A DNA stretch of 64,000 nt from an uncultured bacterium (GCA_966243015.1 CBIMES010000001.1:298076-362075); one strand, 5' to 3'; shown: positions 2,567 through 60,375, counted from the stretch's first letter. The notes: generated by a model not told the origin, from the sequence alone. A program made the numbers and translations.

Positions 2567-3103
2567 TTAGACCCGCGGCCCGACGGGATCCTTTATTAGC
2601 TCCGTCTCAGTAAAGATTGCGCCGCTCTTCATGCGGAACCTCTCTTCGGTAAAGGTCTTCCCTGTCTCCCGAAAGCCCAGCTTCTTGTAAAAGGCAATCG
2701 CCCTGGCGTTATAGTTCACCACGTGGACAATCGTCGGCTTGAGTGGGTCAAGATTTTCCCTCGCCGCCTCCCAGAGCGCCTTGGCCACACCCCTCCCCTG
2801 AAATTCCGGCAAGACGTACATGGCCTGAAGCTGATTGTGCTCGGGCCGGACGAAGACCCGACACAGGCCGACAGCCCTTCCGTCGATCTCCGCGACGAAA
2901 TACCAGCCGCCCTTTGAGCGAGTGTCGGCAATGCTCTTCTGAGACCTCTCGATGCTCGCGGGAGACTTCCTCTCGCCGAAATGCGCCTCGATGTCCTCGA
3001 GGGTTATGCCGTGCTCGGCGTTCGGGTACGTGGCGACCCAGGTGATATAGAAGATGTCGCTGAGCTGGGATGCATCTTCGGGTCGCGCTTCTCGGATGTT
3101 CAT
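2567..3103 (-). CDS. GNAT family N-acetyltransferase
   Basis: 178-aa protein with a GNAT core pattern (..VAEIDGRAVGLCRV..; QGRGVAKAL acetyl-CoA binding motif). Confidence 0.8.
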   Translation of the reverse strand: MNIREARPEDASQLSDIFYITWVATYPNAEHGITLEDIEAHFGERKSPASIERSQKSIADTRSKGGWYFVAEIDGRAVGLCRVFVRPEHNQLQAMYVLPEFQGRGVAKALWEAARENLDPLKPTIVHVVNYNARAIAFYKKLGFRETGKTFTEERFRMKSGAIFTETELIKDPVGPRV

Positions 3104-3112
3104 AGTTTTGAA

Positions 3113-4918
3113 TTATTTATAGTCCTCGGCCTGAAGCGCGAAGAGTCGGGCGTAGGTTCCCTTTCGGGCAATGAGCTCATCGTGCGATCCCAACTCTTCG
3201 ACGGCGCCGTCTTTGAACACGCAGATTCTGTCCGCCTTACGCACGGTTGAGAACTTGTGCGAGATGAGCACGACGGTCTGGCCGCCCGTGAGGGATTCTA
3301 TCTTCTCGAAGATGCGCATCTCGGCCTCTGCGTCGATTGCGGCAGTTGGCTCATCGAGAATCATGAGGCCCGCCTTGCGGTGGAAGAGTCGCGCAATGGC
3401 AAGGCGCTGCTTTTGGCCTTTTGACGGGTCAATACCGCCGTCGAACTCGACGCCGAGCATCTGGTCGTACTTGTCCTTCCATTCCAATATAAAGCTCTCG
3501 GAGTCGCTCGACTGCGCGGCCTCGACGACGCGCTCGAGGCTCATCGGTTCGCCTGATCTCCCGAGGGAAATCGCCTCTTTTACCGGGAAATTGTACGAGG
3601 CGTATTCCTGGAAGAGGACGCCGAGGTTCCTGTACCACTCGTCGAGGTCGATCTCCCTCAGATCAACCCCGTCCACGAGAATGCGGCCCTCGGTCGGGTC
3701 ATAGACGCGACAGAGCAATTTCACGAACGTCGTCTTGCCCGCGCCGTTCTCACCCACCAGGGCGAACTTCTCGCCAGGATTGAGGGTCAGGGATATGTTC
3801 CTGAGAATCATCTTTCCAGAGCCGGGATACGCGAAAGAGACGTTCTCGAAGGTGATGGTCGGGGTCTTGTTCTTGTTGATCGCGACAGGGTGCGCCGAGC
3901 GATACAGAGTATTCTCCGTATCCAAAATCTGGAAGAGGTTGTCCGCGTAGGTGCTGCGGTCCTGCTGATGCGAGAGCTGGTTCAGGAAGCCTATGAGCGC
4001 AGACTGGAAGCGATCCATGGACGAGAGCAGGAAGAGCATGGTTCCGACCTCAATCAGGCCAATGGATACGCGATAGACGATGAAGATGACGGTTCCGCCG
4101 ACAATCGCGCCCAAGATGAGTGTCGAGCCCGCCTCGAAGGCGAGCTTTTTCTTCTCGACGACCTTCTGCCTGTCGCCGAAAGTTCCCAGTATACGTGAAA
4201 TATGAGCAAAGAAGTGCCCCACGTTCTGGAAGAGCTTGAGCTCCACGAGCCACGTTCGACTGTTGAAGTACGATCTGATATCCTCGTAGCGTCTGCGCAC
4301 GGCCGTATCCGCGTCCCAGATGCCCCAGGCCTCCTTGCCGTACTTTATTTGGGTGATGAATCGCGGAATCACGGCAAGGGCAACCAAGAGGCATACGACC
4401 CAGTTGAAGCTCGCGAGGATGACCATGGCCGTAACGACCTGGGTAAGATCCCTCAGGATGTTGAACTGGATCTCCGACATGTTCACGATCGGCCACACGT
4501 CCCGATCCTCGGCCTTGTTTATCAAGTCCTGGAAGGCTGGGTTCTCGAACTGTTGAATGTCCATCGACGCCTTCTTCTTGAGATAGAGGAGCTGGAACGC
4601 CTTACCCAGGTCGATGTAGTTTCGCTTCTCGAAGTACTCTCGCAGGCTCGACACGATGTCGGGCAGGAAGAGCGTCAGGGCAAATGCTCCGGCGAGCAGA
4701 AGAATCAGGCGCGGCGCATAGTCGCCCGCCACGAGCGAATTCACGAGCGCGGCAGAGATGCCCGACTGCGCAAAGGGGAAAAGCGCCAGGAGAATCGACG
4801 TTGTGACCATGCCGATGACGACAGGCTTGTCATGCTCCCAGGCGAACAGGGCGACCCTCCAGCTCGTCACGAGAACCTTCTTGAAGGAGGCGTATTTTGA
4901 GGTGGTTGTGGTGCTCAT
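3113..4918 (-). CDS. ABC transporter, fused permease/ATP-binding protein (type I exporter)
   Basis: 601 aa with an N-terminal 6-TM domain. Walker A GENGAGKTT, ABC signature LSKGQKQRLAIAR, Walker B LMILDEPTAAID. Confidence 0.85.
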   Translation of the reverse strand: MSTTTTSKYASFKKVLVTSWRVALFAWEHDKPVVIGMVTTSILLALFPFAQSGISAALVNSLVAGDYAPRLILLLAGAFALTLFLPDIVSSLREYFEKRNYIDLGKAFQLLYLKKKASMDIQQFENPAFQDLINKAEDRDVWPIVNMSEIQFNILRDLTQVVTAMVILASFNWVVCLLVALAVIPRFITQIKYGKEAWGIWDADTAVRRRYEDIRSYFNSRTWLVELKLFQNVGHFFAHISRILGTFGDRQKVVEKKKLAFEAGSTLILGAIVGGTVIFIVYRVSIGLIEVGTMLFLLSSMDRFQSALIGFLNQLSHQQDRSTYADNLFQILDTENTLYRSAHPVAINKNKTPTITFENVSFAYPGSGKMILRNISLTLNPGEKFALVGENGAGKTTFVKLLCRVYDPTEGRILVDGVDLREIDLDEWYRNLGVLFQEYASYNFPVKEAISLGRSGEPMSLERVVEAAQSSDSESFILEWKDKYDQMLGVEFDGGIDPSKGQKQRLAIARLFHRKAGLMILDEPTAAIDAEAEMRIFEKIESLTGGQTVVLISHKFSTVRKADRICVFKDGAVEELGSHDELIARKGTYARLFALQAEDYK

Positions 4919-5010
4919 AGAGGCAGTTTGTTTGGTGCCCTTAAGTATACGCTGGACTTTCCATTCTGGACAATTGATGTTTAAATTGCGGTCACGCCGA
5001 CCACACTCCC

Positions 5011-6015
5011 ATGAAAAAGAAGCGCCCCAATCCCCTCCTCCCGAAAATGCTCCGTAAAATCGCCCCGCGCATCGGTGCGAAGGTTACGATCGAGCCTGAA
5101 TGGGGCGTCGTGGGCCAGATAACCTTCAAGAGTGGGAAGAAAAGCTATTTCAGATACTCGACCCTCGACCTCAACCCCGTCGGCTCGTCAGATATCGCCA
5201 AGGACAAGGACTATGCCAACTTCTTCATGAAAAAGCTCGGGTACCCTACCGTTCCCGGCAAGGCGTTCTATTCGCCCGACTGGGCACGGGCAATCGGCTC
5301 ACACCAGTCCACGAAGCCCGCGGCGACATACGCACAGAAACTCGGCTTCCCCGTCATCATCAAACCGAACAGTGGCAGCCAGGGGTCAGGAGTGCGCCTG
5401 GTACACAACAAGAAGGAATTCTTCTCGGGACTCCGTGACATATTCAGGAAAGACCGCGTCGCCCTCGTGCAGACGCCCGTTCGAGGCAAGGACTATCGCA
5501 TCGTGGTACTCGATGACAAAGTGATATCAGCATACGAGCGCGTGCCGCTGAGCGTCATGGGCGACGACAGGACAACGATCCTCGGCCTCCTCAAGAGGAA
5601 ACAGGCATCGTTCGTCGCATCGAGCAGGGACACCGTACTTAACATACGCGACAGGCGCATCGCCGCGAAGCTCAAGCGGGCCGGACTAACCGTGAAATCA
5701 ATTCCGGCCAAGGGCGAGCAGATCTTCCTGCTCGACAACGCGAACCTCTCTACGGGTGGCGACTCAATCGACGTCACGAAAGTGATTCACCCCGAATTCA
5801 GGGACATCGCCGTGCGCCTGACCAGAGACATGGGCCTACGTATCTGCGGCGTCGATCTCATGGTATCGGGCGATATCTCGGAAAAGCCCGTCACGTACTG
5901 GGTGCTCGAAATAAACGCGGCACCAGGCCTCGACCATTACGCAAAATCAGGAAAGGCCCAAGAGAAGATCGTAGAGGAGTTGTACCTGGAGGTTTTGAGG
6001 AGTTTGAATAAATAA
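5011..6015 (+). CDS. Stand-alone ATP-grasp ligase related to the cyanophycin synthetase (CphA) ATP-grasp domain
   Basis: KDYRIVVLDDKVISAYERVP, DNANLSTGGDSIDVTKVIHPEF and LEINAAPG closely parallel the CphA ATP-grasp motifs KGNDYRVLVV, RATANLSTGGTAIDRTDDIHPEN and EVNAAPG. There is no Mur-ligase domain. Confidence 0.75.
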   Translation: MKKKRPNPLLPKMLRKIAPRIGAKVTIEPEWGVVGQITFKSGKKSYFRYSTLDLNPVGSSDIAKDKDYANFFMKKLGYPTVPGKAFYSPDWARAIGSHQSTKPAATYAQKLGFPVIIKPNSGSQGSGVRLVHNKKEFFSGLRDIFRKDRVALVQTPVRGKDYRIVVLDDKVISAYERVPLSVMGDDRTTILGLLKRKQASFVASSRDTVLNIRDRRIAAKLKRAGLTVKSIPAKGEQIFLLDNANLSTGGDSIDVTKVIHPEFRDIAVRLTRDMGLRICGVDLMVSGDISEKPVTYWVLEINAAPGLDHYAKSGKAQEKIVEELYLEVLRSLNK

Positions 6016-6146
6016 GAACACGACCTTGGAAGAGATGAGGACCTTGATTCGGCCCATAAAAGCTAGCGTGGAACCACCTTCGAGCGAAACACTTCCCCGG
6101 CTCTAAACGGTTATACTACGACGCACAGAAGTCCGAGCTGACAAAA

Positions 6147-6171
6147 AATCGGCCCAACTAGTGGGCCGATT
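6147..6171 (-). terminator. Terminator hairpin (aatcggcccaactagtgggccgatt) flanked by an A-run and TTT; bidirectional candidate
   Basis: 8-9 bp GC stem. The a6 run before it gives a U-tract on minus, immediately after the small minus ORF that ends at 6182. Confidence 0.4.
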
Positions 6172-6181
6172 TGAAACGAGC

Positions 6182-6385
6182 TTAAGAGCGAGCAATCAAG
6201 ACACAAGCCACAAAAACAAGAATCGCTAATGCATCAATCAGGACGAGGAAGCGAATAAGCCTCTTCCCCTCCGAAGATTGATAAAAGGCAATCTTGTCTT
6301 CCGCATATTTCTTGAATCCGCCCGGATAATTTTGAGCAACGACGAGCTCAAGCCGCATCGTTGCAAGAGCCATATTGGTTATCAT
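6182..6385 (-). CDS. Small tail-anchored membrane protein (67 aa), hypothetical
   Basis: ORF with a C-terminal TM helix (LIRFLVLIDALAILVFVACVLIA) and a terminator directly downstream. Lies in the transition zone to the low-GC island. Confidence 0.35.
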   Translation of the reverse strand: MITNMALATMRLELVVAQNYPGGFKKYAEDKIAFYQSSEGKRLIRFLVLIDALAILVFVACVLIARS

Positions 6386-6546
6386 GGTACAAAGAATTTA
6401 GCATCAAAATAACACTTAAAGTAAATAACGGCAACTCTTTGACATAATTATGAAAAATACGTAAGGTTATGCAGAATCAGTTCTTTCACATCGTAGGATA
6501 GGTATCCATACAATCAGGAAGAGCAACAAAACCCAATCCGTCCCCA

Positions 6547-7677
6547 GTGACGCCAATAACCATGAATCAGGAAATTATGTCATCGGAGCGGCTGAAAGCC
6601 TCTCTTGCTATTCCGGACCTAACGGATCCACGGAATGGAATTCACGCGATAAACATTATTATAGAAAAAATCGTGACTGCCATGAAAAAAGGCAATCCCG
6701 ATTCCTCTATTGAAGAAATCCGGGGGGATCCGAGAGTGTCGATCAAGGATAATTTCGACGACCTCTTGTTTCCAAAAGACAACGCGGGCCGATCCTCCCG
6801 ATACACTCGATACGTATCTGAAGACACTGTCCTCAGAACCCACATGTCATCCGCAGCGCCCTCATGGCTCAGAAAAAGATCAGCAGACCGAGCCCAAGAC
6901 ACAATCGCCATTTTTCCAGGGATGTGCTACCGCCGCGATGTTGTCGACAGGACGCATTGCGGAGAACCTCATCAAATGGATATATGGCGTATCAAAAGAG
7001 GAGGTCGGCGCTGTGACAGAAAGGCGTTGATAAAGACAATAGAAACAGTCCTTGGCGCCGTCGTTCCTCAGTTCCAATATCGAGCCAACGAAGTCAGACA
7101 CCCTTACACGATTAACGGCCTCGAGGTCGAGATTCTTGTAAATGATACGTGGCTTGAAATTCTAGAGTGCGGTGAAATACACCCAACCGTGCTCATGAAC
7201 GCAGGTCTTGATCCTGATGAATATTCAGGGCTCGCTCTGGGAATGGGTCTCGACAGACTGGTGATGGCCCTTAAGAGAATCGACGATATCAGAATCCTCA
7301 GGTCTCAAAACCCGAGAATTAAGAAACAGCTGATGAACCTTGAGCCATTTGTCGTCACGTCAAATCAACCAGCCGCAAAACGGGTTATCTCCTATTCAAC
7401 CTCTGTTAAAGAAACAGAGGAAGATACATGCGAGAAAATTCGAGACGGCCTTGGAAAAGATGCCGTCTTCCTGGAGCAGATAGAATACGCGGAAACCCCC
7501 TACGAGGAACTGCCGGAGAAAGCCCGCCTTAACCTCGGCATCAAGCCCGACCAAAAGAACGTGGTGGCCACGATCACGTTTCGATCAATAGACGGTTCCC
7601 TGGCCCGCCCCATGGTAAACAATTGGATAGAGACGCTCTACCCAAAACTCAACCAAGGCAGCAAAGGCTACATCTAA
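6547..7677 (+). CDS. Monomeric phenylalanyl-tRNA synthetase-like class II aaRS (PheS-type catalytic core plus C-terminal FDX-ACB-like domain, mitochondrial-type architecture)
   Basis: FDDLLFPKDN...VLRTHMSS...FPGMCYRRD...HQMD...WLEILECGEIHPTVLMNAGLDPDEYSGLALGMGLDRLVMAL matches the PheRS-alpha motif 2/3 region (RTHTS, PGRVYR.D, WLEVLGCGMVHPNVL..GIDPEVYSGFAFGMGMERL). The C-terminal ~100 aa (..NVVATITFRSIDGS..) resembles the ferredoxin-fold anticodon-binding domain. Low-GC gene. Confidence 0.7.
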   Translation: MTPITMNQEIMSSERLKASLAIPDLTDPRNGIHAINIIIEKIVTAMKKGNPDSSIEEIRGDPRVSIKDNFDDLLFPKDNAGRSSRYTRYVSEDTVLRTHMSSAAPSWLRKRSADRAQDTIAIFPGMCYRRDVVDRTHCGEPHQMDIWRIKRGGRRCDRKALIKTIETVLGAVVPQFQYRANEVRHPYTINGLEVEILVNDTWLEILECGEIHPTVLMNAGLDPDEYSGLALGMGLDRLVMALKRIDDIRILRSQNPRIKKQLMNLEPFVVTSNQPAAKRVISYSTSVKETEEDTCEKIRDGLGKDAVFLEQIEYAETPYEELPEKARLNLGIKPDQKNVVATITFRSIDGSLARPMVNNWIETLYPKLNQGSKGYI

Positions 7678-7691
7678 AACCCCTGGCAGCA

Positions 7692-7729
7692 AAGGGTCGC
7701 ACAGAATTATTCTGAGCGACCCTTTTTTA
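7692..7729 (+). terminator. Rho-independent terminator for the PheRS-like gene
   Basis: aagggtcgc...gcgaccctt stem followed by ttttttat. Confidence 0.55.
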
Positions 7730-7738
7730 TCATATGAA

Positions 7739-7761
7739 AGCCCCTCACTTTCATGAGGGGC
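7739..7761 (-). terminator. Terminator hairpin for the convergent minus-strand operon (after the LysRS-like gene)
   Basis: gcccctca cttt catgaggggc; the minus-strand reading continues with tttcatatgataaaaaa. Confidence 0.45.
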
Positions 7762-7780
7762 CGATTGATTTGCGAAAAAC

Positions 7781-9226
7781 TTAAAAAACAGGAAAAAGTT
7801 CCACGTCCCTAATATCTCTCGCATTGAGAAGAAGCATGAGAAGTCGCTCAATCCCCATGCCGATACCTCGGCACGGCGGCAGTCCAAATTCCATGGCACG
7901 AATTATGCTTTCGTTAACATGTCCTTGTTCTGCCTTTCCGTATTTAGCCTGTTCCTCCATGCTGCGACGGATAATAACAGGGTCACGCTCCGGATTCACG
8001 ATGTCAGCAACGAGCATGCCGTTGATGACAAGCAGAGTCTCGTCAACGGTTGAGCCGTCGCCGTTCCCCTTGAAAAGGGGCGACTGAGCCGCGGGCAGCC
8101 CCCTCAAGAACGTGGGGGTCGTGATGCCCGACACGATGTGAGCATACAAAGAAGTCGATACGGTATACCTGTTTACCTTAGCGGGACGAGGTATACCGAT
8201 TGCATCAAGCAAGACAGCCAGCTCTTCGACCGGACGAGATTCGTCATATCGAAAACCTGTCAACCTTTCAATCTCCTCAGCATAATCGCACACAGTCCAA
8301 CTACCAGAACAGTCAATCACCCCATCCGCCACAGGCAAACTTGCCGAACCATACAGCTCACGAAGGATTTCACACAGCAGATCCTTTATAAGCCCCTCCA
8401 TCTCTTCCCGGCTCGCATATGCGCGATACAGTTCAAGAATAGTGAAGTGCGGCAAGGTGCTCGATGTCGCCCCTTGGTTTCTAAACGATTTTCCAATTTC
8501 AAAGACCCTTGATAAACCACCCACCATGAGCTTGCGGAGAAGAATCTCAGACGTAAGCCTGAGATACATGTCCCCGGTTTGATCAACGGAACGAGTGACA
8601 AACGGATCCGCAAGACCTGCCTCAAAACTATTTTGAAGTAGGCCCATATTGAGCTCCTCGTAACCACGAGCGTAGAGAAACTGTCTAAGCACCCTAAATA
8701 TCGTGGAGCACCTGCGAAAGTGCAGAACCATTTTCGGGTCCCGAATAAGCTGAAGATATCTATATTCGCTTACATTTGATTTCTTTCGAAAATCAATGTT
8801 TGAATCGTAAACATCACCCGTCGCCTTTGAAAGCAGACTTATTCGGTTGGCGAAAAAGATCGAGGTTCCAAGATATTTTTTCTTAACCCCGCACAACGCA
8901 ACCACATCTCCGTAATGAATCAGCGAATTAACAACATCGATATTGTCTTGATTTCGCACAAGGAAAGCGGCAACCGAGCAGCCGTTCCCCTCAAGCCTCT
9001 CCAAAACGATAGCATCAACACCATCAACCGCCTCAAACACACCCAGTCGTGATTTTTTTGTAAGCGGGTCAGAAAGCATAATTCTCCCCACTATAGTTAT
9101 TTCGCTTTCAAAAGGCGCCCGCTCAAAGTCGGAGGCCTCGATACAACCCATTGGCGCATCTTTTTGATACACAAACGGGTCCTTTTCTAAGGCACGAAGC
9201 CTCTTTCCATTGCTATTTTTAGCCAC
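7781..9226 (-). CDS. Lysyl-tRNA synthetase-like class II aaRS (divergent; last gene of the island operon)
   Basis: YLRLTSEILLRKLMVGGLSRVFEIGKSFRNQG (LysRS motif 2, compare [34 protein letters not shown]) and C-terminal GIGMGIERLLMLLLNARDIRDVELFP (motif 3). AAGGAG SD 6 nt upstream and a TTGACA -35-like hexamer. Low GC. Confidence 0.85.
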   Translation of the reverse strand: MAKNSNGKRLRALEKDPFVYQKDAPMGCIEASDFERAPFESEITIVGRIMLSDPLTKKSRLGVFEAVDGVDAIVLERLEGNGCSVAAFLVRNQDNIDVVNSLIHYGDVVALCGVKKKYLGTSIFFANRISLLSKATGDVYDSNIDFRKKSNVSEYRYLQLIRDPKMVLHFRRCSTIFRVLRQFLYARGYEELNMGLLQNSFEAGLADPFVTRSVDQTGDMYLRLTSEILLRKLMVGGLSRVFEIGKSFRNQGATSSTLPHFTILELYRAYASREEMEGLIKDLLCEILRELYGSASLPVADGVIDCSGSWTVCDYAEEIERLTGFRYDESRPVEELAVLLDAIGIPRPAKVNRYTVSTSLYAHIVSGITTPTFLRGLPAAQSPLFKGNGDGSTVDETLLVINGMLVADIVNPERDPVIIRRSMEEQAKYGKAEQGHVNESIIRAMEFGLPPCRGIGMGIERLLMLLLNARDIRDVELFPVF

Positions 9227-9299
9227 AATGACTCCTTTTCTTGTTTTTTATGTTAATGAACTAAGGTTTCCGTAACATTGATACAAAACAATAAAAGTG

Positions 9300-9842
9300 T
9301 CAATTACCCTTCTTGAAGATATCGTACTTAAAATCCTTGTGTGTCATTGACGGCCGAGGACCAATGCTGTTCTGATACTTCCCCTTGTAGAGAGAGATCT
9401 CGCCAAAAGGAACCCAGAAGCTTACCTGCGCGATAGACATTCCTGGATAGATACGAACAGGAAGGGTTGCGTAGAGTTGAAAGGTCGTAACCCCATGAGA
9501 TCCTATATCAATCAAATCAGCGGTAACGTGAACAAAGAGACCCATCCTAGCCGTGCCGGACTTTCCGTGTATCAACGGAACATAAAAATCGCTACCGATA
9601 CGCTCCCTGGAGTGCCCCAGAACAAAGTCACCTGCCTTAAGAACCAACCCATCTTCAGGTATTCGTATCTCTTCGTAAACTGCCTCGTGCTTAGGATCAA
9701 TGACACCCGGTCCATATCGGATGACAGTGTCGCCAAGCGACAAATCATAAGAATTGGTCGTGACCGACTCTTCATTAAACGGAACTATCTCTATCTTGTC
9801 ACCCCGAACTTCCTCGAGGATTTTTTTACCCGTAAGTATCAT
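9300..9842 (-). CDS. dCTP deaminase/dUTPase-family protein, paralog 2 (Gln at the position aligning with the catalytic Glu)
   Basis: GKSGTARMGLFVHVTADLIDIG...PGMSIAQVSF aligns with Dcd GRSSLARLGLMVHVTA...PGMLIGALSF. It has ..TTFQLY.. where the upstream paralog has ..TLEIV... The start ATG overlaps the upstream stop (ATGA). Confidence 0.8.
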   Translation of the reverse strand: MILTGKKILEEVRGDKIEIVPFNEESVTTNSYDLSLGDTVIRYGPGVIDPKHEAVYEEIRIPEDGLVLKAGDFVLGHSRERIGSDFYVPLIHGKSGTARMGLFVHVTADLIDIGSHGVTTFQLYATLPVRIYPGMSIAQVSFWVPFGEISLYKGKYQNSIGPRPSMTHKDFKYDIFKKGN

Positions 9843-10357
9843 GGGGCTTTTTGTTTAGCGGTTGGTACATATGACTCCTGGGGATGATTCAGACGACCGT
9901 ACACTCCCACGTAAGAATCAATAGGCCCGAAGTTTTTCCAGAATGAAACTTGGCCAATCACCATTCCAGGATAGACCCTTATTGGCAAGGCGGCCACAAT
10001 CTCAAGGGTCCACCTATGCATTGAGGTGGTGTGGCCAAGATTTGCAGAGACCTGCAAAAACAAGCCGTATCTGCCCATCGAGCTTCTACCAATAAGAGAC
10101 ATGGCGTATTCCGAGCTCCCGATAATCTCTTGAGTGTTCGCGAGATACATCCGGCCCGGCTCTAGTACATACCCCTCTTGGGGAATGGACAACTCTTTAA
10201 AGACGGACTTGCCACCATCGAAGAAAACAAACTCTTTCAAAGTGGGACCCAGGCGGTAATTGTAGCTATTGGGATTAATTTGTTCAGGCAAAAACGGCTC
10301 AATGACTATCCTTTTGCCAGCAATCTCTTCTTTTATTTTTGCCCCAGTCAGAATCAT
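9839..10357 (-). CDS. dcd: dCTP deaminase-family protein, paralog 1
   Basis: MILTGAKIKEEI..., GRSSMGRYGLFLQVSA, WTLEIV (catalytic Glu context), PGMVIGQVSF. Confidence 0.8.
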   Translation of the reverse strand: MILTGAKIKEEIAGKRIVIEPFLPEQINPNSYNYRLGPTLKEFVFFDGGKSVFKELSIPQEGYVLEPGRMYLANTQEIIGSSEYAMSLIGRSSMGRYGLFLQVSANLGHTTSMHRWTLEIVAALPIRVYPGMVIGQVSFWKNFGPIDSYVGVYGRLNHPQESYVPTAKQKAP

Positions 10358-10360
10358 AAC

Positions 10361-11182
10361 TTAGAATAGTTCCACGAAACGATTCGGATAGATGTCTTTC
10401 CTATACCTTAAGACAAGCGTACTGTATCTCTGATAAGGCCTCAATTCATTGGACATCTTTTTGATATCGTAGAGCCGGTTATAAATCGCCTTACGGACCC
10501 CGGCATCATGGATGCCGAGCATAATGCAAGCTCTGTCCGTCGTGCACTTACAATAATAATCGAGCTCTTCCTTTGTTTCTGGAATAAGATCGTTTCGATC
10601 CTCGAATATGATCTCAAGCTTATTGTAGAGTTTCATAATTTCCTTGTAGGACACGGACGTCGGCGTAATCCCAAAAACCTTTCTAGCTTTTTTAATTAAG
10701 GTGGCCGGGATTGTCTTGGTTACGTAGAAAGGTGAGGCGAGTATATAACCACCGTCATCAAGCATACCAATACACTTTTCAAGCATCTTTGATGGATCAG
10801 GGAAAAAGCCGAGCGAGGCTCCCACGACGATATGACTGAAAGGCTCATTCGTCGAAAATTCATACCCATTCGCAACTCTGTATGAAAATTTTACACCAGG
10901 AGCGTATTGATCCTTATTGTAATTTGCCATTTTTACAGAATTTTCCGACAGATCGAAACCCTCCCCGCTGCAACCAGACATAATAGCAAGTTCCCGAGAG
11001 GAAAAACCCGTTGTACACGCAACCTCAAGAAGTCGTGAGGTTTTTTTCAACCCCGAAAACTGAGCCCACTTAGAAAGTGTGACGTATGATCCCGGCAAAA
11101 CATTCCACTGATTAATCAATCCGACAAAATCAGTGTAGGAGAGATTTTTTACATAGTCTGAGGTAATCGTGTTATTTTTCAT
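10361..11182 (-). CDS. Class I SAM-dependent methyltransferase
   Basis: Motif I LEVACTTGF and an acidic motif II. 273 aa. AGGAA upstream. Confidence 0.8.
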   Translation of the reverse strand: MKNNTITSDYVKNLSYTDFVGLINQWNVLPGSYVTLSKWAQFSGLKKTSRLLEVACTTGFSSRELAIMSGCSGEGFDLSENSVKMANYNKDQYAPGVKFSYRVANGYEFSTNEPFSHIVVGASLGFFPDPSKMLEKCIGMLDDGGYILASPFYVTKTIPATLIKKARKVFGITPTSVSYKEIMKLYNKLEIIFEDRNDLIPETKEELDYYCKCTTDRACIMLGIHDAGVRKAIYNRLYDIKKMSNELRPYQRYSTLVLRYRKDIYPNRFVELF

Positions 11183-11194
11183 GTTTCCTTTACC

Positions 11195-12400
11195 CTAAAA
11201 TTCGTATACAGGCGGTATTGAGCTTATAAAATTCTGCGCCAAAGAATAAGTTAAGGCACCTTGATTCGGCACCACAATAACATCCCCCTCCCTCAGTCGA
11301 TCAGCATAGCAGAGATAGCCCCAAATATCCCAAGTGGTACAAAGGTTGCCCCACACGCGACAGCTAATCTCACTTTTTGCCGGCATCGATATATTTACCA
11401 ACGGAAAATACTCGTGCTCGAAGCGCTGCCAACCAACCATGTTAACGCCTGCGTCCAGGATAATATTTGACTCATCCTTTTTATCAGCAACGCGAGCGAC
11501 TATAAGCATAGAGTTGTTGCATATAAAACGACCAGGTTCCGCACGATATTGGGCGTCGATTAAGGGCTCAAGATCCTTCTTTATTGCATCGCCTATCTTT
11601 TGAGCGTACTCAGCGATCTCCAGACTTTCCCTAACTCGATAAGAACCCTCAACGCCCTTTACATCGCCAGAAGAATAATAACCCTCCGATCGAGAAACCT
11701 CGAATCCGCCACCAAAATCAACGTACTTGATAGAACGAAGGTCCTCGACACTAAAATTCAGCTTAATAAAAAGCCCTATTTTTGAAATAGCGTCCTCATA
11801 AGAGGATGCATCCTTGTTTCTTGAGGTGTGAAAATGAATGCCTTCAAGCTCAATAAACGGATGTCGTTTTGCCGCATCCCAAAACTCGCCAAGCCTCTCA
11901 AGGGGGATGCCGTATTTTTTCCAATCGCCGAAAAGATCCACGTGAACCCTAACTCCCGCCTTTATCTTTAAACCCGAGGCCGACGTCAATGATCCAAGCG
12001 TCTCCAGTTCACTAAAACTATCCATGTTAACAGTCACCATATCAGAATACTTGAGTGCATGCGCAAGATCCGCTCTTGTCTTGCCTGGACTGAAATACAT
12101 AATATCCTTACAGCCCGCCGCAACAGCGAGGTCTATTTCTCGGACACTACCGACATCGAGACCCATACCCCGCTCAACAACACGAGCAATCACTTTGGGA
12201 TGATGATTGAGTTTAAGCGCATAATAAGCCCTAAAAGAGGCAACCTCCTTGTTGAAAGCATCTAAAAAAGAGCTTATGGAAGCATCGAGGGCCTTCATAT
12301 CAAGAGCATAGAAAGGCGTTCCGTGCTTCTCAACAAGCTCAAGCAACGAATCTCGCTTCTCGAGCACATCTTCTACGATATGATACAGTCCGGTACTCAT
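11195..12400 (-). CDS. Fold-III PLP-dependent decarboxylase (Orn/DAP/Arg decarboxylase family; LysA-like or MccE-N-like)
   Basis: YALKLN (PLP-lysine motif), DFGGGF, EPGR. The start overlaps the upstream stop by ATGA. Confidence 0.85.
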   Translation of the reverse strand: MSTGLYHIVEDVLEKRDSLLELVEKHGTPFYALDMKALDASISSFLDAFNKEVASFRAYYALKLNHHPKVIARVVERGMGLDVGSVREIDLAVAAGCKDIMYFSPGKTRADLAHALKYSDMVTVNMDSFSELETLGSLTSASGLKIKAGVRVHVDLFGDWKKYGIPLERLGEFWDAAKRHPFIELEGIHFHTSRNKDASSYEDAISKIGLFIKLNFSVEDLRSIKYVDFGGGFEVSRSEGYYSSGDVKGVEGSYRVRESLEIAEYAQKIGDAIKKDLEPLIDAQYRAEPGRFICNNSMLIVARVADKKDESNIILDAGVNMVGWQRFEHEYFPLVNISMPAKSEISCRVWGNLCTTWDIWGYLCYADRLREGDVIVVPNQGALTYSLAQNFISSIPPVYEF

Positions 12401-13416
12401 ATAACGGATTTCTCAAATACGATCGACGCCTCTTCGGTATCGATAGCGACCGTGCCGCCGTTCGGTATGGTAATAAGCGGATCCGAGTGTCCAAAATCAG
12501 CGTTGTACATAACAGGAAAAGTGGAAGAGCCGAGATTCTCCCCGAGAATCTCTTCGAACGAGTCGTCTCGAGAGAAGCCAGACTGTTCCGTAAACCTACC
12601 GAAGACAAGACCCGATATGGCCTCAAACCACCCCAGCTGCTTACACTGGCAAAGGAATCTATCGACGTGGGCAGGGGTGCTTGTCTCGTCCTCTTCCAGA
12701 AAAAGAATCTTACCTTTCAAATCGGGCATATATTCCGTCCCCTGAAGCAGAAGCAGGGTTTGAAGATTTCCAACGAGAACCTCTCCCGCTGCGCTTCCGG
12801 CCCTGAAGACCTTAACGCCCTCATTGGCCTTTTTAATCCTGTGGTCATTGTCTTCCCTGAGAAAGTATAAATCGTCAGCGTATTCCCCCGATGACTCAAT
12901 GGCAACCCTCTCTTTTGGAGAGACGCACATTTCTTCAAAGTACTTCCAGGTGTACCCAAAAGGCTCAGGCTTGGCGAAAGATATGACTCCGGGACCAGAG
13001 AAAGTAACGAGCCCGGTCTTGGTTGTGATAGCGGTAGTGAGGGCAGTTACATCAGAATAGCCGATAAATACCTTCGGATGCTTGCTAATTAGACCATAAT
13101 CAAGGCGATCGAGAATCTGATTGGTATTGAAACCTCCCCAGAAAGCCATAATGCATCCCACGTCTTCCCTTTCGAGGAACCTGTGTATGTCCTGAACCCG
13201 AAGATCAACAGACCCTGCAACATGCTTGTTGGTAAGGTTTTTAACAGACTCACCCTCAGCGATAACGAAACCTCTTTCTTCGAGATACTTGTAACCTCGC
13301 TGAATAGTCTCTTCTGGGCAGACGCCCGCAACCGGATCAGCAGGTGCAATAATTCCAATGGTCATGCCCTTTTTGAGCCTTGGCGGGAGTACTTTTCCTG
13401 ATTGATTTGACGACAT
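12397..13416 (-). CDS. S66 family LD-carboxypeptidase (LdcA/MccF-like serine peptidase)
   Basis: IGIIAPADPV N-terminus, nucleophile context FIGYSDVTAL, length 339 aa. First gene of the operon. Confidence 0.85.
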   Translation of the reverse strand: MSSNQSGKVLPPRLKKGMTIGIIAPADPVAGVCPEETIQRGYKYLEERGFVIAEGESVKNLTNKHVAGSVDLRVQDIHRFLEREDVGCIMAFWGGFNTNQILDRLDYGLISKHPKVFIGYSDVTALTTAITTKTGLVTFSGPGVISFAKPEPFGYTWKYFEEMCVSPKERVAIESSGEYADDLYFLREDNDHRIKKANEGVKVFRAGSAAGEVLVGNLQTLLLLQGTEYMPDLKGKILFLEEDETSTPAHVDRFLCQCKQLGWFEAISGLVFGRFTEQSGFSRDDSFEEILGENLGSSTFPVMYNADFGHSDPLITIPNGGTVAIDTEEASIVFEKSVI

Positions 13417-13794
13417 GAATTAAGGATAACCATAATTAACCAAAACCACAATAATAGCCGTCTCGAAACAAAAAAAACGGAACGATGTCCCGTCTCGCAA
13501 GCTCAATCTTGACCCATTTCCCCGTAGTCATGCCCGATCCCGTGCTAGAAAGAGCTCACGGTTCGATCATCATTGCCCAAACAGGTGTAGTCCACAGTCC
13601 CAGAAAGAGAATCAACTCCCCGCTTTTGATACCGCCCGCAGGCAATGATTACGAGAAGGAAGGCAATTTCAGCGGGTGCGATAATGCACAATAAATACAT
13701 TGTACTCATCGGTTGAAGGTGCGTTTTGTTTTCAAAAAGAATAACAAATAGACGTTCAAGAAGTTATAAAGATCTAATAAAAAAACTCTTGGCC

Positions 13795-15456
13795 CTATTT
13801 AACCTCCGGCACCTCCACAATGAAGGCGCTTCCCTTGCCCTCTCCCTCTGACTCGGCCCAGAGCCTGCCGCCGTGCGCGGTGACGACCTCCTTGGCGATG
13901 AAGAGACCGAGGCCGGTTCCGTGGATGTTGGCCTCGCTCGCGTTCTTGGCGCGCGAGAATTTGCGGAAGAGCTTTGGCATGACCTCAGGCGCGATACCCA
14001 CCCCGGTGTCCACGACCTTGAAGCGGATCATGTGACGAGCGGTGTCCTTCTCGAGAGAGATTGATATCGAGCCCTTGAGCGTGTACTTAACCGAATTGTC
14101 GACGACATTCATGAGAACCTGCTTGAACTTGTCGAGGTCGGCCTTGATTGGATACGGCTGCGCCTGATCGATCGAGACGTTGAACGCGAGGCCCTTCGCC
14201 TCAATGTTTGGCTTCTGCTCGGCGACGACCTCAGCAACGAGGCCCTTGAGATCTATCTCCTTGAGGTCGTACCGCATGGTTCCGAGCTCTATGCGGGTTA
14301 TGTTGAGATAATCCTCAACAACGCTTGAGAGCGTGTTGACCGACGTAAGTATGGTCTGCACAATCTTCCTCATGCCATCGGAGACGGGCCCCGCATCGCC
14401 TTCGAGAATAATTGAGGTGTATCCCCTTATAGACGTAAGAGGGCTCCTGATTTGATGCGTGGCAAAGGAAAGGAACTCTGTTTTCTGTGTATCGAGCTCC
14501 TTGAGGCGGGCGTTTGCCTTTTCAAGCTGATCTTTTTGCGCCTCAATAAGCTGCCTCGCCTCGACTTCTTTTTTCACGCTTCTAACAAGAATTGTTCCGA
14601 GAATCGCGGTAAGAATGAGCGTAAGTACCGTTACGATACGGATATTCTCTATCCTCCTTATGAAAAGAATTGCGAATATGAGGAACAGAAGGGTTCCCAC
14701 GAGTACCTGTGCACTGAACAGCCTGACATCAAAAGCTTTAAACCTAACAATCATGTACGAGAGGAAAGCGATAAAAAGCGCCATGCCGAGGGGCCCGACG
14801 AGATTGAACTCGTAGATGAGAGTCGCGTCGCCAACGACATTCGTAGTCACAAAGGTTCCCAGGAGAATGAGGGTCCCCAGTATAAGCGAGAGTACTTTTT
14901 TCTTCTCTGGTGATGATTCGGACTTTCTGCGCTTCGAAACGCAGAGGAGAATCGCAAAGAGGGCCAACACCACCTGCAGGATATACACATAGACCCAAAG
15001 AGGACCGTTGTAGCTCTGGCACTCCACCAGGTCAAAATAGGTCATGTTCAGAGTCGTTGGCAAAAGCACCAGGATCGGCAGGAGCGAGACGAAGCCGAGA
15101 AGCCTTAGGGAGAACGGAGGGATCCTGTCGTGAAGGAAGACGTAGACAAAGTGGACAACAGACAGGACGAGGCCAACCTGGAGCAGGGCGGAAACTTGCC
15201 AGCCAAAATGAACAAACCACGCGTCGACGGCAACCCACTGCAGAAGCTCGTTAATAATCCAAAGCGAGAACGAGGCAGCGATGGCGAGAAGTGACCTTGT
15301 CTGCAACGACCTGTTCTTAATAAAGAGGAATATGGAGAAGAAAAGAGAGAGAAATACTATCGGTATGTAGGAATAGTAGAGAAGCGTCGGGGCAATCGAT
15401 GTATCGATGATGCCGAAAAGGTTGGGGGCAGCGTCTAGACACAGAAACGGGTCCAT
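13795..15456 (-). CDS. Membrane sensor histidine kinase (multi-TM sensor + HisKA + HATPase_c), orphan
   Basis: About eight N-terminal TM helices. H-box FLSFATHQIRSPLTSI, N box, G boxes (VVDTGVGI, GTGLGLFIAKE). No response regulator adjacent. Confidence 0.85.
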   Translation of the reverse strand: MDPFLCLDAAPNLFGIIDTSIAPTLLYYSYIPIVFLSLFFSIFLFIKNRSLQTRSLLAIAASFSLWIINELLQWVAVDAWFVHFGWQVSALLQVGLVLSVVHFVYVFLHDRIPPFSLRLLGFVSLLPILVLLPTTLNMTYFDLVECQSYNGPLWVYVYILQVVLALFAILLCVSKRRKSESSPEKKKVLSLILGTLILLGTFVTTNVVGDATLIYEFNLVGPLGMALFIAFLSYMIVRFKAFDVRLFSAQVLVGTLLFLIFAILFIRRIENIRIVTVLTLILTAILGTILVRSVKKEVEARQLIEAQKDQLEKANARLKELDTQKTEFLSFATHQIRSPLTSIRGYTSIILEGDAGPVSDGMRKIVQTILTSVNTLSSVVEDYLNITRIELGTMRYDLKEIDLKGLVAEVVAEQKPNIEAKGLAFNVSIDQAQPYPIKADLDKFKQVLMNVVDNSVKYTLKGSISISLEKDTARHMIRFKVVDTGVGIAPEVMPKLFRKFSRAKNASEANIHGTGLGLFIAKEVVTAHGGRLWAESEGEGKGSAFIVEVPEVK

Positions 15457-50669: not shown

Positions 50670-53549
<2,880 letters not shown>

Positions 53550-59517: not shown

Positions 59518-59590
59518 TGGACCATACCGGAATCGAACCGGTCGCCTCATCCATGCCATGGATGCGCTCTACCAAATGAGCTAATGGCCC
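59518..59590 (-). tRNA. tRNA-Ala (anticodon GGC)
   Basis: Manual fold gives a 7-bp acceptor stem with G3:U70, anticodon loop auGGCau and T-loop ttcgatt. CCA is not encoded. Confidence 0.8.
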
Positions 59591-60302: not shown

Positions 60303-60375
60303 TGGACCTGACAGGATTTGAACCTGCGACCTTCGCTTTGCAAAAGCGCTGCTCTACCAACTGAGCTACAGGCCC
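60303..60375 (-). tRNA. tRNA-Ala (anticodon UGC)
   Basis: gggcctgtagctcagttggtagagc... with anticodon loop ttTGCaa, G3:U70 and T-loop ttcaaat. Confidence 0.8.

Follow-up and report, generated by a model that had tools for sequence, protein, structure and literature searches.

In the 64-kb stretch of DNA that was analysed, hereafter called the window, we found a seven-gene cassette. At its conserved core stand an MccD-like gene, two divergent dCTP-deaminase-like (DCD) genes that form an obligate pair, and a class II aminoacyl-tRNA synthetase (aaRS)-like gene. On balance, and with modest assurance, we consider that this cassette makes, and guards against, an amino-acid-linked pyrimidine nucleotide, which would be decorated with an aminopropyl or a 3-amino-3-carboxypropyl (acp) group, aminoacylated, and produced independently of MccB. 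If this is correct, the product is an amino-acid-linked pyrimidine nucleotide of an undescribed kind. The homologies of the proteins, the linkage of the genes and their phyletic pattern were observed; from these we infer the chemistry.

Coordinates are reported in Table 1. The preliminary description had named three coupled ORFs, encoding an S66 peptidase, a fold-III decarboxylase and a methyltransferase, followed by two DCD-family genes and an aaRS paralogue. The three ORFs were confirmed at the positions given and lie on the minus strand, the two DCD-family genes and a LysRS-like class II gene do follow, and all of the motifs quoted were present, among them IGYSDVTAL in the S66 ORF and LEVACTTGF in the methyltransferase ORF. 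The order along the operon is S66, PLP decarboxylase, MccD-like, DCD1, DCD2 and LysRS-like. The S66 ORF shares 4 nt with that of the decarboxylase, 12 nt separate the decarboxylase from the MccD-like ORF downstream, 3 nt separate the latter from DCD1, and DCD1 and DCD2 overlap by 4 nt. The seventh gene, SrmL, is encoded on the opposite strand and runs towards the other six (3′ ends at 7677/7781). Between the two 3′ ends stand an inverted repeat with 17-nt arms that are 94% complementary (7691-7725) and a GC-rich stem (7740-7761) that leads into a T-rich tail, a pair of hairpins that is likely a bidirectional terminator.

Table 1. Positions in the window of the cassette genes and associated features
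Feature	Coordinates	Strand	Basis
S66 serine peptidase, MccF type, 339 aa	12397..13416	-	Pfam Peptidase_S66 + S66C
Fold-III PLP-dependent decarboxylase, 401 aa	11195..12400	-	Pfam Orn_Arg_deC_N + Orn_DAP_Arg_deC
MccD-family class I SAM-dependent alkyltransferase (putative), 273 aa	10361..11182	-	PDB, Foldseek, motifs
DCD1, dCTP-deaminase-like paralogue	9839..10357	-	Pfam DCD E 2.5e-28
DCD2, dCTP-deaminase-like paralogue	9300..9842	-	Pfam DCD E 3e-34
LysRS-like class IIb aaRS paralogue, 481 aa	7781..9226	-	PRK00484, PDB LysRS
Two hairpins between convergent SrmL and LysRS-like genes	7691..7761	.	inverted repeat, stem
SrmL, PheS-related ligase, 376 aa	6547..7677	+	NCBIfam NF051887
Low-GC island with the seven genes	about 6100..13800	.	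composition profiles

Searches with Pfam-type profiles returned generic methyltransferase domains for the 273-aa protein. Among PDB entries, 5fcd, labelled 'MccD', was matched over the full length at E 3.6e-24, the next methyltransferase being at 4e-4, and a Foldseek search with the AF2 model (pLDDT 89) also ranked 5fcd first (E 2.5e-20, TM 0.82). The protein is 26% identical to E. coli MccD over its full length, and 26% identical to AgnB1. It shares 34 invariant columns with the E. coli and Yersinia MccDs (including Y16, D18, F19, Q25, N27, P30 and G31), and both the N-terminal Y-x-DF...Q-x-N-xx-PG and the ACxTGxSSR motif are invariant in all of them. In fold, N-terminal extension and motifs it therefore agrees with MccD, which is its nearest characterised methyltransferase, and the MccD kinship first suggested for it was thereby strengthened. 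In a NJ tree of 122 members of the MccD superfamily, the window protein clustered with DCD-associated proteins and did not fall into the clade of E. coli MccD, standing apart from the EcMccD/YpMccD/MccB-C-terminal and AgnB1 groups. Sequence and predicted fold together place it in the small MccD/AgnB1/MccB-C-terminal superfamily. It probably transfers acp from SAM, and the decarboxylase next door supports acp as the group transferred. As the superfamily also takes in the C-terminal domains of MccB, which a review describes as carboxymethyltransferases (PMC8323819), homology does not by itself fix the transferred group or the acceptor.

The peptidase carries the N and C domains of Peptidase_S66 (E 1e-32 and 4e-31) and shares 32% identity with E. 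coli MccF (E 7e-48), and the same proportion with the S66 peptidase encoded on the agrocin 84 plasmid. MccF-like PDB chains were matched at 1e-43 to 1e-63, with the MccF-like Lmo1638 and BA_5613 at about 1e-63 and MccF itself at 1e-43 to 1e-48; LdcA chains were weaker (1e-13 to 1e-28), and the LdcA model NF008424 gave 118 bits, against a cutoff of 378. Both domains of the S66 fold are represented, and the alignment pairs the Ser of GYSD, the Glu of LEED and the His of GHSDP with the catalytic triad of MccF. We classify the protein by its sequence as MccF-type rather than LdcA-type, in line with its original annotation, and propose that it hydrolyses aminoacyl-nucleotide amides, in self-protection or de-aminoacylation. 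At the position of W186, the adenine-stacking Trp of E. coli MccF, it has a Leu, preceded one and two positions earlier by a Tyr and a Phe, and its substrate loop aligns without large gaps. The replacement would fit a different nucleobase, but is not decisive.

The assignment of the decarboxylase had to be revised. Its Orn_Arg_deC_N and Orn_DAP_Arg_deC domains (E 1e-28 and 1e-10) and the motifs YALKLN, HFH, DFGGGF, EPGR and GNLCTTWD provide the fold-III PLP-Lys, HxH, GGG, EPGR and catalytic Cys, next to an MccD-type gene, and to this extent the comparison with the N-terminal domain of MccE held. The closer relationship did not: identity to that domain was 22% over 137 aa (E 1e-6), PDB LysA chains outscored it (95 bits), and the protein contains no GNAT domain. 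Orthology with the MccE N-terminal domain was rejected on these values. The GNAT gene at 2567-3103, which had been mentioned alongside the trio, is indeed present, but it lies outside the island, does not resemble the MccE C-terminal domain and has no counterpart in related loci. The decarboxylase is not a LysA either. It scored 157 bits with the lysA model TIGR01048 (cutoff 297.9), and the DAP-binding residues RPxxY and CE(S/T)GD of LysA are replaced by 'GWQRFE' and 'CTTWD' in all cassette orthologues. We regard it, on sequence, as a distinct fold-III subfamily, and propose that it turns the acp group into aminopropyl. Fold-III decarboxylases of at least four lineages adjoin MccD-like genes.

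DCD1 and DCD2 are 43% identical to each other, and both match the fold and family of dCTP deaminase and bifunctional DCD-DUT (dUTPase superfamily). Neither reached the equivalog cutoff of TIGR02274 (63 and 87.5 bits, respectively, for a cutoff of 92.8), and neither has the full catalytic set of Dcd (Ser/Arg, His..IDPGF, Glu). Alignment of 46 DCD1 orthologues with the M. tuberculosis DCD showed that the catalytic Glu is kept and the H..TAGFIDPGF motif lost. In DCD2, at least 80% of 45 orthologues have a Gln where the catalytic Glu would stand, and a C-terminal motif resembling the triphosphate arm is retained. Unlike dCTP deaminases, the two proteins are obligate tandem paralogues with complementary losses, and their genes were always linked to MccD-like or aaRS-like genes instead of nucleotide-metabolism operons. 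In three related loci (L034, L037 and L044), the pair is replaced by a Zn-dependent dCMP/cytidine deaminase, a NUDIX protein and a thymidylate-kinase-like protein. Together with the census below, this comparative context bears out the link to cytosine nucleotides that the preliminary description had only hinted at.

The LysRS-like protein aligned with the LysRS model PRK00484 over residues 40-480, with 241 bits for a cutoff of 468, scored 213 bits with a second LysRS model (428 needed), and matched PDB LysRS chains at E 1e-51. Three changes are family-wide: FRNE to FRNQ, HNPEFT to LPQFT, and GGMELAPCYSELNDP to NGMLVADIVNPERDP (GGMEL...SELNDP to NGMLV...NPERDP). They fall in what we take to be the ATP/Mg-binding sites (motif 2 and the Mg/ATP strand). 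Both the score and the canonical motifs of a class II lysyl-tRNA synthetase are lacking. The protein is a candidate aminoacyl ligase or aminoacyl-tRNA-dependent transferase; a role as a spare target enzyme seems less likely. The convergent gene encodes a full-profile match to NCBIfam NF051887, 'PheS-related mystery ligase SrmL' (388.9 bits, cutoff 300), related to PDB PheRS alpha chains at E about 1e-20. SrmL adjoins the cassette in six loci (L010, L012, L013, L015, L020 and L022). Neither SrmL nor the low-GC island had been noticed in the preliminary description.

The island has a GC content of 42-50%, for 55-59% in the flanks, and its host is a tiny-genome Patescibacteria bacterium. Elsewhere the seven-gene unit was found in other flanking contexts, with serine recombinases or Fic genes nearby. 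Judging from the low GC and the variable flanks, the cassette is horizontally acquired and mobile. The order S66-decarboxylase-MTase-DCD-DCD recurs in at least 12 independent contigs, at 50-80% identity, and the arrangement of the trio is therefore not due to chance. The trio is nevertheless not the unit that is conserved, contrary to what had been assumed. In a census of 58 related GTDB loci, 46 combined an MccD-like gene with the DCD pair, and 43 of these also had a class II aaRS-like gene (34 of 35 among loci of at least 12 kb), of the AlaRS-core-like (29), LysRS/class IIb-like (14) or SrmL (8) type. The S66 peptidase was present in 32 of the 46 and absent from 14, and the fold-III decarboxylase was present in 20, so that aminopropylation is not universal. 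No MccB/ThiF gene was found in the 46 DCD-type loci, MccB being restricted in the census to the classical loci L061-L064; in the window, an MccB HMM likewise detected no MccB/ThiF-like ORF at E<=10, as previously noted. Full-length LeuRS, SerRS or class I LysRS genes adjoin 13 loci, and LeuRS genes flank 5 related loci. Related loci occur in Patescibacteria, DPANN archaea, Proteobacteria, Paenibacillus and actinomycetes. In the cultured bacteria Paenibacillus, Burkholderia and Streptomyces the core has a natural-product setting, with ABC or MFS exporters, P450s, a carbamoyltransferase and an ATP-grasp enzyme around it, and the Paenibacillus locus has a truncated AlaRS-like gene together with a 594-aa AlaRS. 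The seven-gene cassette itself contains no conserved exporter; the ABC exporter of the window adjoins the island from outside and is not conserved in related loci.

The pathway that we propose would run as follows. DCD1 and DCD2, probably as a heteromer, would make the nucleotide scaffold from a cytosine (deoxy)nucleoside triphosphate, and onto this scaffold the MccD-like enzyme would transfer the 3-amino-3-carboxypropyl group of SAM. The acceptor may be the phosphate, as for MccD, or the pyrimidine ring, as for the C-terminal domains of MccB. The decarboxylase would then trim acp to aminopropyl, and the LysRS-like protein and/or SrmL, itself class II aaRS-like, would add an amino acid, donated either by an adenylate, as proposed for AgnA, or by an aminoacyl-tRNA, as shown for AcmF. 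Cleavage of the aminoacyl-nucleotide amide by the MccF-type enzyme would provide self-immunity or make aminoacylation reversible. In favour of this pathway stand the homologies to MccD, AgnB1 and MccF, the gene linkage seen in the census, the natural-product setting in cultured bacteria, the cytosine-nucleotide enzymes of L034, L037 and L044, the mobility of the island, and the precedents of microcin C, agrocin 84 and ascamycin. Several observations count against it: the missing catalytic Glu of DCD2, the separate clade of the MccD-like protein, the loss of canonical ATP/Mg residues in the LysRS-like protein, the adenine-stacking Trp that the S66 protein has not kept, the lack of a conserved exporter in the cassette, and the absence of the decarboxylase from 26 of the 46 loci.

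Alternatively, the cassette may be an intracellular system making an acp- or aminopropyl-pyrimidine (deoxy)nucleotide for nucleic-acid modification, pool manipulation, or anti-phage or abortive defence, with no secreted aaRS inhibitor. The lack of a conserved exporter is also what such a system would lead one to expect, Fic/DOC and serine recombinase genes nearby are reminiscent of defence or mobile islands, the sister loci that combine an MccD-like gene with dCMP deaminase, NUDIX and thymidylate-kinase-like genes point to nucleotide-pool enzymology, and its hosts include tiny-genome Patescibacteria and DPANN archaea. We consider it rather unlikely all the same. PADLOC reported nothing except a methyltransferase-domain match for the MccD-like protein (mad2, E 4e-9), no relative came up when IMG/VR was scanned by pattern, and thymidylate-synthase-like and DNA-transferase genes are lacking. 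Nor would it account for a class II aaRS-like partner in nearly every locus, for the MccF-type peptidase and the adjacent spare aaRS genes, or for the exporters and tailoring enzymes in the loci of cultured bacteria.

That the island serves only immunity or detoxification, the S66 peptidase and its helpers acting on exogenous microcin C- or agrocin-like compounds while the cell makes no such product, is improbable. MccF homologues that stand alone and give resistance are common (PMC8323819), and the cassette has no MccB, precursor peptide or exporter, but MccD and the decarboxylase are biosynthetic in the known system, it is the MccD-like gene and the DCD pair that are best conserved whereas the S66 gene is missing from 14 of the 46 loci, and the versions found in cultured bacteria resemble full biosynthetic clusters. 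Salvage of murein peptides and lysine, the conservative option kept in the preliminary description, would have LdcA trim the tetrapeptide, LysA convert meso-DAP to Lys, and LysRS charge it. The families involved are the right ones (S66, Orn/DAP decarboxylase and class II LysRS), yet we find this reading barely credible: all three proteins fell far below their equivalog cutoffs, the DAP-binding residues of LysA and the ATP/Mg motifs of LysRS are replaced, and MccF, not LdcA, is the nearer relative of the S66 protein. Salvage also offers no explanation for the occurrence in DPANN archaea, which to our knowledge have no murein, nor for SrmL, the low-GC island, the MccD-like gene and the DCD pair. 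The production of an amino-acid-linked pyrimidine nucleotide remains our preferred reading. Of the Trojan-horse-type module suggested at the outset, the MccD and MccF homologies and the lack of MccB stood, and the MccE and GNAT assignments and the trio as a unit did not.

Among known systems, microcin C (E. coli plasmid MccC7-H22, L007), for which the functions of MccD, MccE and MccF have been described (PMC8323819, PMC10491745), likewise combines an MccD-family SAM enzyme, a fold-III PLP decarboxylase and an MccF-type S66 peptidase, and it supplies the best structural match of the cassette methyltransferase. Unlike microcin C, the cassette has no MccA precursor, MccB (ThiF) or MccC exporter. 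Its decarboxylase stands alone, comes from another lineage and has no GNAT domain, its methyltransferase lies in a separate clade, W186 of MccF is not kept, and it adds a DCD-like pair and class II aaRS-like genes.

Two further parallels had been missed in the preliminary description. In ascamycin biosynthesis (AcmD/AcmF/AcmE, Streptomyces sp. 80H647), AcmF, a truncated AlaRS-like protein without adenylation residues, moves Ala from tRNA to the amine of a nucleoside sulfamate, and a hydrolase reverses the reaction (PMC12945691). The truncated AlaRS-like genes of 29 of the 46 related loci are likened to AcmF by description only. The window has LysRS-like and PheS-like proteins instead, and ascamycin is built on a sulfamate scaffold, for which no MccD-like or DCD-like genes are reported, whereas the cassette has both.

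The agrocin 84 cluster (pAgK84-type plasmids, L069) is, like the cassette, non-ribosomal and MccB-independent. It encodes AgnA, a truncated class II aaRS, the MccD-family AgnB1 (30% identical to MccD), an S66 peptidase, and an extra aaRS, the immunity LeuRS AgnB2. Agrocin 84 is an adenine nucleotide without an aminopropyl group (PMC8323819). Its cluster has NUDIX proteins where the cassette has a DCD pair, and no fold-III decarboxylase beside AgnB1 where the cassette has one; AgnA lacks the anticodon-binding domain, whereas the LysRS-like protein of the window is full length. The aaRS-like, MccD-family and S66 components of agrocin 84 all have detectable homology in the window.

The S66 peptidase, the fold-III PLP decarboxylase and the MccD-like SAM enzyme were all present at the positions and in the operon described earlier, with every motif then cited, and their families were borne out by Pfam. 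They belong to a seven-gene cassette filling a low-GC island, together with two dCTP-deaminase-like paralogues (DCD1 and DCD2), a LysRS-like gene and SrmL. Coordinates are reported in the table.

Features of the cassette, of the rest of the window and of the compared pAgK84-type plasmid
Feature	Position	Strand	Remarks
S66 peptidase	12397-13416	minus	family confirmed by Pfam
Fold-III PLP decarboxylase	11195-12400	minus	4-nt overlap with S66 ORF; family confirmed by Pfam
MccD-like enzyme (class I SAM enzyme)	10361-11182	minus	family confirmed by Pfam
DCD1	9839-10357	minus	4-nt overlap with DCD2; DCD family by Pfam
DCD2	9300-9842	minus	4-nt overlap with DCD1; DCD family by Pfam
LysRS-like class II gene	7781-9226	minus	last gene of the tight operon
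Hairpins	7691-7761		between the convergent SrmL and LysRS-like genes
SrmL (PheS-related)	6547-7677	plus	converges on the operon; NCBIfam NF051887, 389 bits, cutoff 300
Low-GC island	~6100-13800		sharp edges; 42-50% GC, flanks 55-59%; filled by the seven genes
67-aa ORF	6182-6385	minus	left edge of the island
Cyanophycin-synthetase-like ATP-grasp ligase	5011-6015		beside the island; host-like GC
ABC exporter	3113-4918		host-like GC; matches include a cyanophycin-associated ABC model, below its cutoff
GNAT	2567-3103		host-like GC
Housekeeping AlaRS	39347-41161	minus	short form, ~600 aa (NF002436)
Canonical LeuRS	50670-53549	minus	
tRNA genes	59518-59590, 60303-60375	minus	only Rfam matches in the window; distant from the island, apparently unrelated
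AgnB1 and S66 peptidase of L069	11992-12813 and 19281-20339		pAgK84-type plasmid, NZ_CP048507

The GNAT, ABC exporter and ATP-grasp genes were ruled out as cassette members on account of their GC content and of their lack of conservation beside other cassettes; they may form a separate small peptide or polyamide system (2567-6015). The 67-aa ORF, whose C-terminus is hydrophobic, is annotated as a gene by public assemblies, matches nothing in Pfam and does not resemble c8, a small SrmL-linked ORF of other cassettes. A repeat search for att sites of the island gave only short repeats at chance level. Elsewhere, the window encodes DnaK, LeuRS and UvrC. Its short AlaRS shares 82% identity with one from 'Candidatus Paceibacterota', from which we place the host in Patescibacteria (Paceibacterota/Parcubacteria); the contig also turns up in public metagenome assemblies. 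The 64 kb showed neither a canonical LysRS nor a canonical PheRS.

The only strong PDB match of the MccD-like protein was 5fcd, deposited as MccD, over its full length (E 3.6e-24), the next methyltransferase appearing at 4e-4. MccD from the mcc operon of E. coli plasmid MccC7-H22 aligned over its full length with 26% identity (E 3e-29), and the invariant residues common to both proteins include an N-terminal extension that generic methyltransferases are without. With an AlphaFold model (pLDDT 89), 5fcd again ranked first, five orders of magnitude before other methyltransferases. Hundreds of relatives were found at 64-76% identity, the named ones being Patescibacteria. Exhaustive searching of 1.84 billion representatives showed the MccD superfamily, which also counts MccB-methyltransferase fusions among its members, to be small, with 343 clusters at E<=1e-3 and 23 at E<=1e-30. 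The window protein grouped in a rough tree with other DCD-associated proteins, in a clade of their own. IMG/VR, scanned with the MccD-like alignment, gave no relative. A seeming fusion of an N-terminal extension to an MccD-like domain (P0251) was set aside; it showed no informative domain and is possibly an ORF-calling artefact.

The S66 protein was far nearer to MccF-type chains than to LdcA, with 32% identity to MccF (E 7e-48). The catalytic Ser, Glu and His of MccF align in it, and the position of W186, which stacks the adenine in MccF (PMC8323819), is occupied by Leu. The microcin C-like reading of the preliminary description was supported in part. Its MccD-like and MccF-like members held, as did the absence of MccB, no ThiF/MccB-like ORF being found in the window with an MccB HMM and six-frame ORFs. 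Similarity of the decarboxylase to the MccE N-terminal domain proved marginal, and the GNAT that the description pointed to is unrelated to the MccE C-terminal domain.

DCD1 and DCD2 share 43% identity, and both fall under the dCTP deaminase equivalog cutoff. Alignment of 46 DCD1 and 45 DCD2 orthologues with the M. tuberculosis DCD as reference showed that DCD1 keeps the catalytic Glu and the GRSS.GR segment and has lost the 'H..TAGFIDPGF' segment. DCD2 keeps the latter and the C-terminal 'Y.GKYQ...GP..S' arm, with Gln replacing the Glu. Because these losses are complementary and family-conserved, and the two genes always adjacent, the alignment suggests that they may form a heteromer with composite active sites. 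Three loci without the pair (L034 at 2920-8053, L037 and L044) combine the MccD-like gene with a Zn dCMP/cytidine deaminase, a NUDIX protein, a thymidylate-kinase-like protein and an alanine-racemase-like PLP enzyme. We read this set as a non-orthologous replacement of the pair, which points to cytosine-nucleotide deamination and pyrophosphohydrolysis as the job of DCD1 and DCD2. The same three loci, found in some Patescibacteria, also carry a GFO/IDH-type oxidoreductase, and their MccD-like gene shares 55% identity with that of the window.

Plasmids of Rhizobium etli and of Streptomyces sp. NBC_00239 carry the pair with no MccD-like gene. On the former, it lies beside a cytidine-deaminase-domain protein and a NUDIX protein. 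On the latter (L068, 5864-18516), it sits in a nucleoside-antibiotic-like cluster coding for a ProRS-like protein (317 bits, cutoff 558), a HIT hydrolase, a TauD dioxygenase, glycosyltransferases, a PIG-L deacetylase, two radical SAM enzymes and an Erm-like methyltransferase.

The LysRS alignment of the LysRS-like protein spans residues 40-480. Family-conserved replacements were found in motif 2 and in the Mg- and ATP-binding strand (FRNQ, LPQFT, NGMLVAD...NPERDP); it is therefore no ordinary LysRS, and it may work as AgnA or AcmF do. SrmL, named 'PheS-related mystery ligase SrmL' by the NCBI curators, consists of a PheRS-alpha catalytic core and a C-terminal region of ~100 aa. Neither its C-terminal 116 aa nor the N-terminal 158 aa of the LysRS-like protein matched Pfam. 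In other cassettes the conserved c8 ORF (82-112 aa) overlaps the SrmL start; it is missing from the window, where a c8 HMM matched none of the six-frame ORFs.

Scanned with an alignment of MccD-like relatives, GTDB genomes yielded 58 loci, which were compared by tblastn, ORF clustering and HMMs; Streptomyces loci were read via targeted ORFs and HMMs, since GC3-based gene calling is unreliable there. These loci come from Patescibacteria, Saccharibacteria, DPANN archaea, Alpha- and Gammaproteobacteria, Burkholderia, Roseateles, Paenibacillus, Lachnospiraceae, Flavobacteriales, Paractinoplanes, Streptomyces and Kitasatospora. The MccD-like gene was found together with the DCD pair in 46 of the 58. 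At least one class II aaRS-like gene was present in 43 of these 46 core loci (34 of 35 when only loci of 12 kb or more are counted), the types being truncated AlaRS-core-like (29), LysRS/class IIb-like (14) and SrmL (8). An S66 peptidase was found in 32 core loci, a fold-III decarboxylase in 20, from at least four lineages, and MccB in none of the 46; classical MccB-MccD-MccE loci were solely distant matches (L061-L064, 26-32% identity). Full-length LeuRS, SerRS or class I LysRS genes adjoin 13/46.

Six loci (L010, L012, L013, L015, L020 and L022) contain the complete seven-gene cassette at 50-80% identity, each amid different flanks (serine recombinase, Fic/DOC, ArgRS, amidase, acetate kinase); the cassette thus behaves as a mobile, self-contained unit. 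Among cultured bacteria, the locus of Paenibacillus baekrokdamisoli has two ABC exporters, an adenylate-forming enzyme, a carbamoyltransferase and methyltransferases; that of Burkholderia lata has MFS transporters, a truncated AlaRS-like gene, a decarboxylase, an ATP-grasp enzyme and LeuRS. Actinomycete loci have a class IIb aaRS-like gene, a P450, a methyltransferase and a decarboxylase, with a class I LysRS in two.

We lean towards the view that the cassette makes, and guards the cell against, an amino-acid-linked pyrimidine nucleotide, without MccB. From the observed homology, linkage and phyletic pattern we infer each chemical step. The DCD pair would supply the nucleotide scaffold, to which the MccD-like enzyme would transfer the 3-amino-3-carboxypropyl (acp) group of SAM; the decarboxylase would convert it to aminopropyl, the class II aaRS-like enzyme would attach the amino acid, and the MccF-type peptidase would cut the amino-acid bond. 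Three observations count against such a pathway: the Patescibacteria cassette has no conserved exporter, more than half of the loci are missing the decarboxylase, and the S66 protein of the window has lost the adenine-stacking Trp.

An intracellular modified-nucleotide or defence system is an unlikely alternative; PADLOC gave nothing for eight island proteins beyond a generic methyltransferase-domain match. That the island serves immunity alone seems very improbable. The preliminary description had kept murein/lysine salvage as its conservative alternative. The decarboxylase does carry the fold-III catalytic motifs; salvage is contradicted by sub-threshold scores (for the decarboxylase with the lysA model, 157 bits, cutoff 298) and by its substrate residues, 'RPxxY' and 'CE(S/T)GD' of LysA, which bind the distal end of DAP, being replaced by 'GWQRFE' and 'CTTWD' in it and in all cassette orthologues. 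We consider salvage scarcely credible. Returning to the conjugate pathway, a bolder version, possible yet doubtful, is that the cassette represents a new class of nucleotide natural products, aminoacylated pyrimidine nucleotides with acp or aminopropyl decoration. As parts of this same tentative proposal, the heteromeric DCD-like pair and the class II aaRS-like enzyme would replace MccB/ThiF chemistry, possibly joining the amino acid through an N-P or amide bond by a novel route; the aaRS-like type (Lys, Ala, Phe, Pro or Asx-like) would fix warhead and target; and Patescibacteria and DPANN archaea would deploy the compounds as weapons or growth regulators in episymbiosis.

The searchable literature gave no account of a DCD pair combined with MccD-like and aaRS-like genes, and nothing relevant on SrmL, on MccF in Patescibacteria, or linking dCTP deaminase to MccD or to nucleoside antibiotic clusters. 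To our knowledge, few biosynthetic clusters have been reported from tiny-genome Patescibacteria or DPANN archaea. If the proposed pathway is true, a mobile cassette carries specialised-metabolite chemistry in these organisms, and adds a third way of making aaRS-inhibitor-type nucleotide-amino acid conjugates to the two known from MccB-dependent RiPPs and from agrocin 84, a single case. It would also be the first role of dCTP-deaminase-like proteins in such pathways, and, owing to its modular aaRS-like component, the family would readily supply new aaRS-directed scaffolds as well as resistance genes. A function would then be hinted at for the unexplained AgnB1 and for the curated, uncharacterised SrmL ligase family.

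The agrocin 84 plasmid resembles the cassette in its class II aaRS-derived AgnA, its MccD-family AgnB1 and its S66 peptidase. On L069, where agn names were assigned by gene order and from a review, AgnA (a truncated class II aaRS), AgnB1 and AgnB2 (the immunity LeuRS) stand in a row. AgnB1 shares 30% identity with the MccD of E. coli (E 3e-26) and 26% with the window protein; the MccF-type S66 peptidase, beyond AgnB2, is 32% identical to that of the window. AgnA is the proposed maker of the phosphoramide link in agrocin 84, AgnB1 has no defined role beyond a vague one in pentanamide synthesis, and deaminases are unmentioned in this review of Trojan-horse aaRS inhibitors (PMC8323819). In ascamycin biosynthesis, an AlaRS encoded in the cluster provides Ala-tRNA, from which AcmF, an AlaRS-like protein that is truncated and whose adenylation residues are lost, moves Ala to the nucleoside's sulfamate amine; a hydrolase reverses this step (PMC12945691). 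The P. baekrokdamisoli chromosome (L032, 13653-17918) encodes an AlaRS-like protein truncated to 373 aa and, on the other strand, an AlaRS of 594 aa that has the catalytic domain and the second additional domain (SAD, Pfam tRNA_SAD), a pair resembling AcmF/AcmD. We class the cassette as a variant of the pathways that, like those of microcin C, agrocin 84 and ascamycin, lead to nucleotide-amino acid conjugates.
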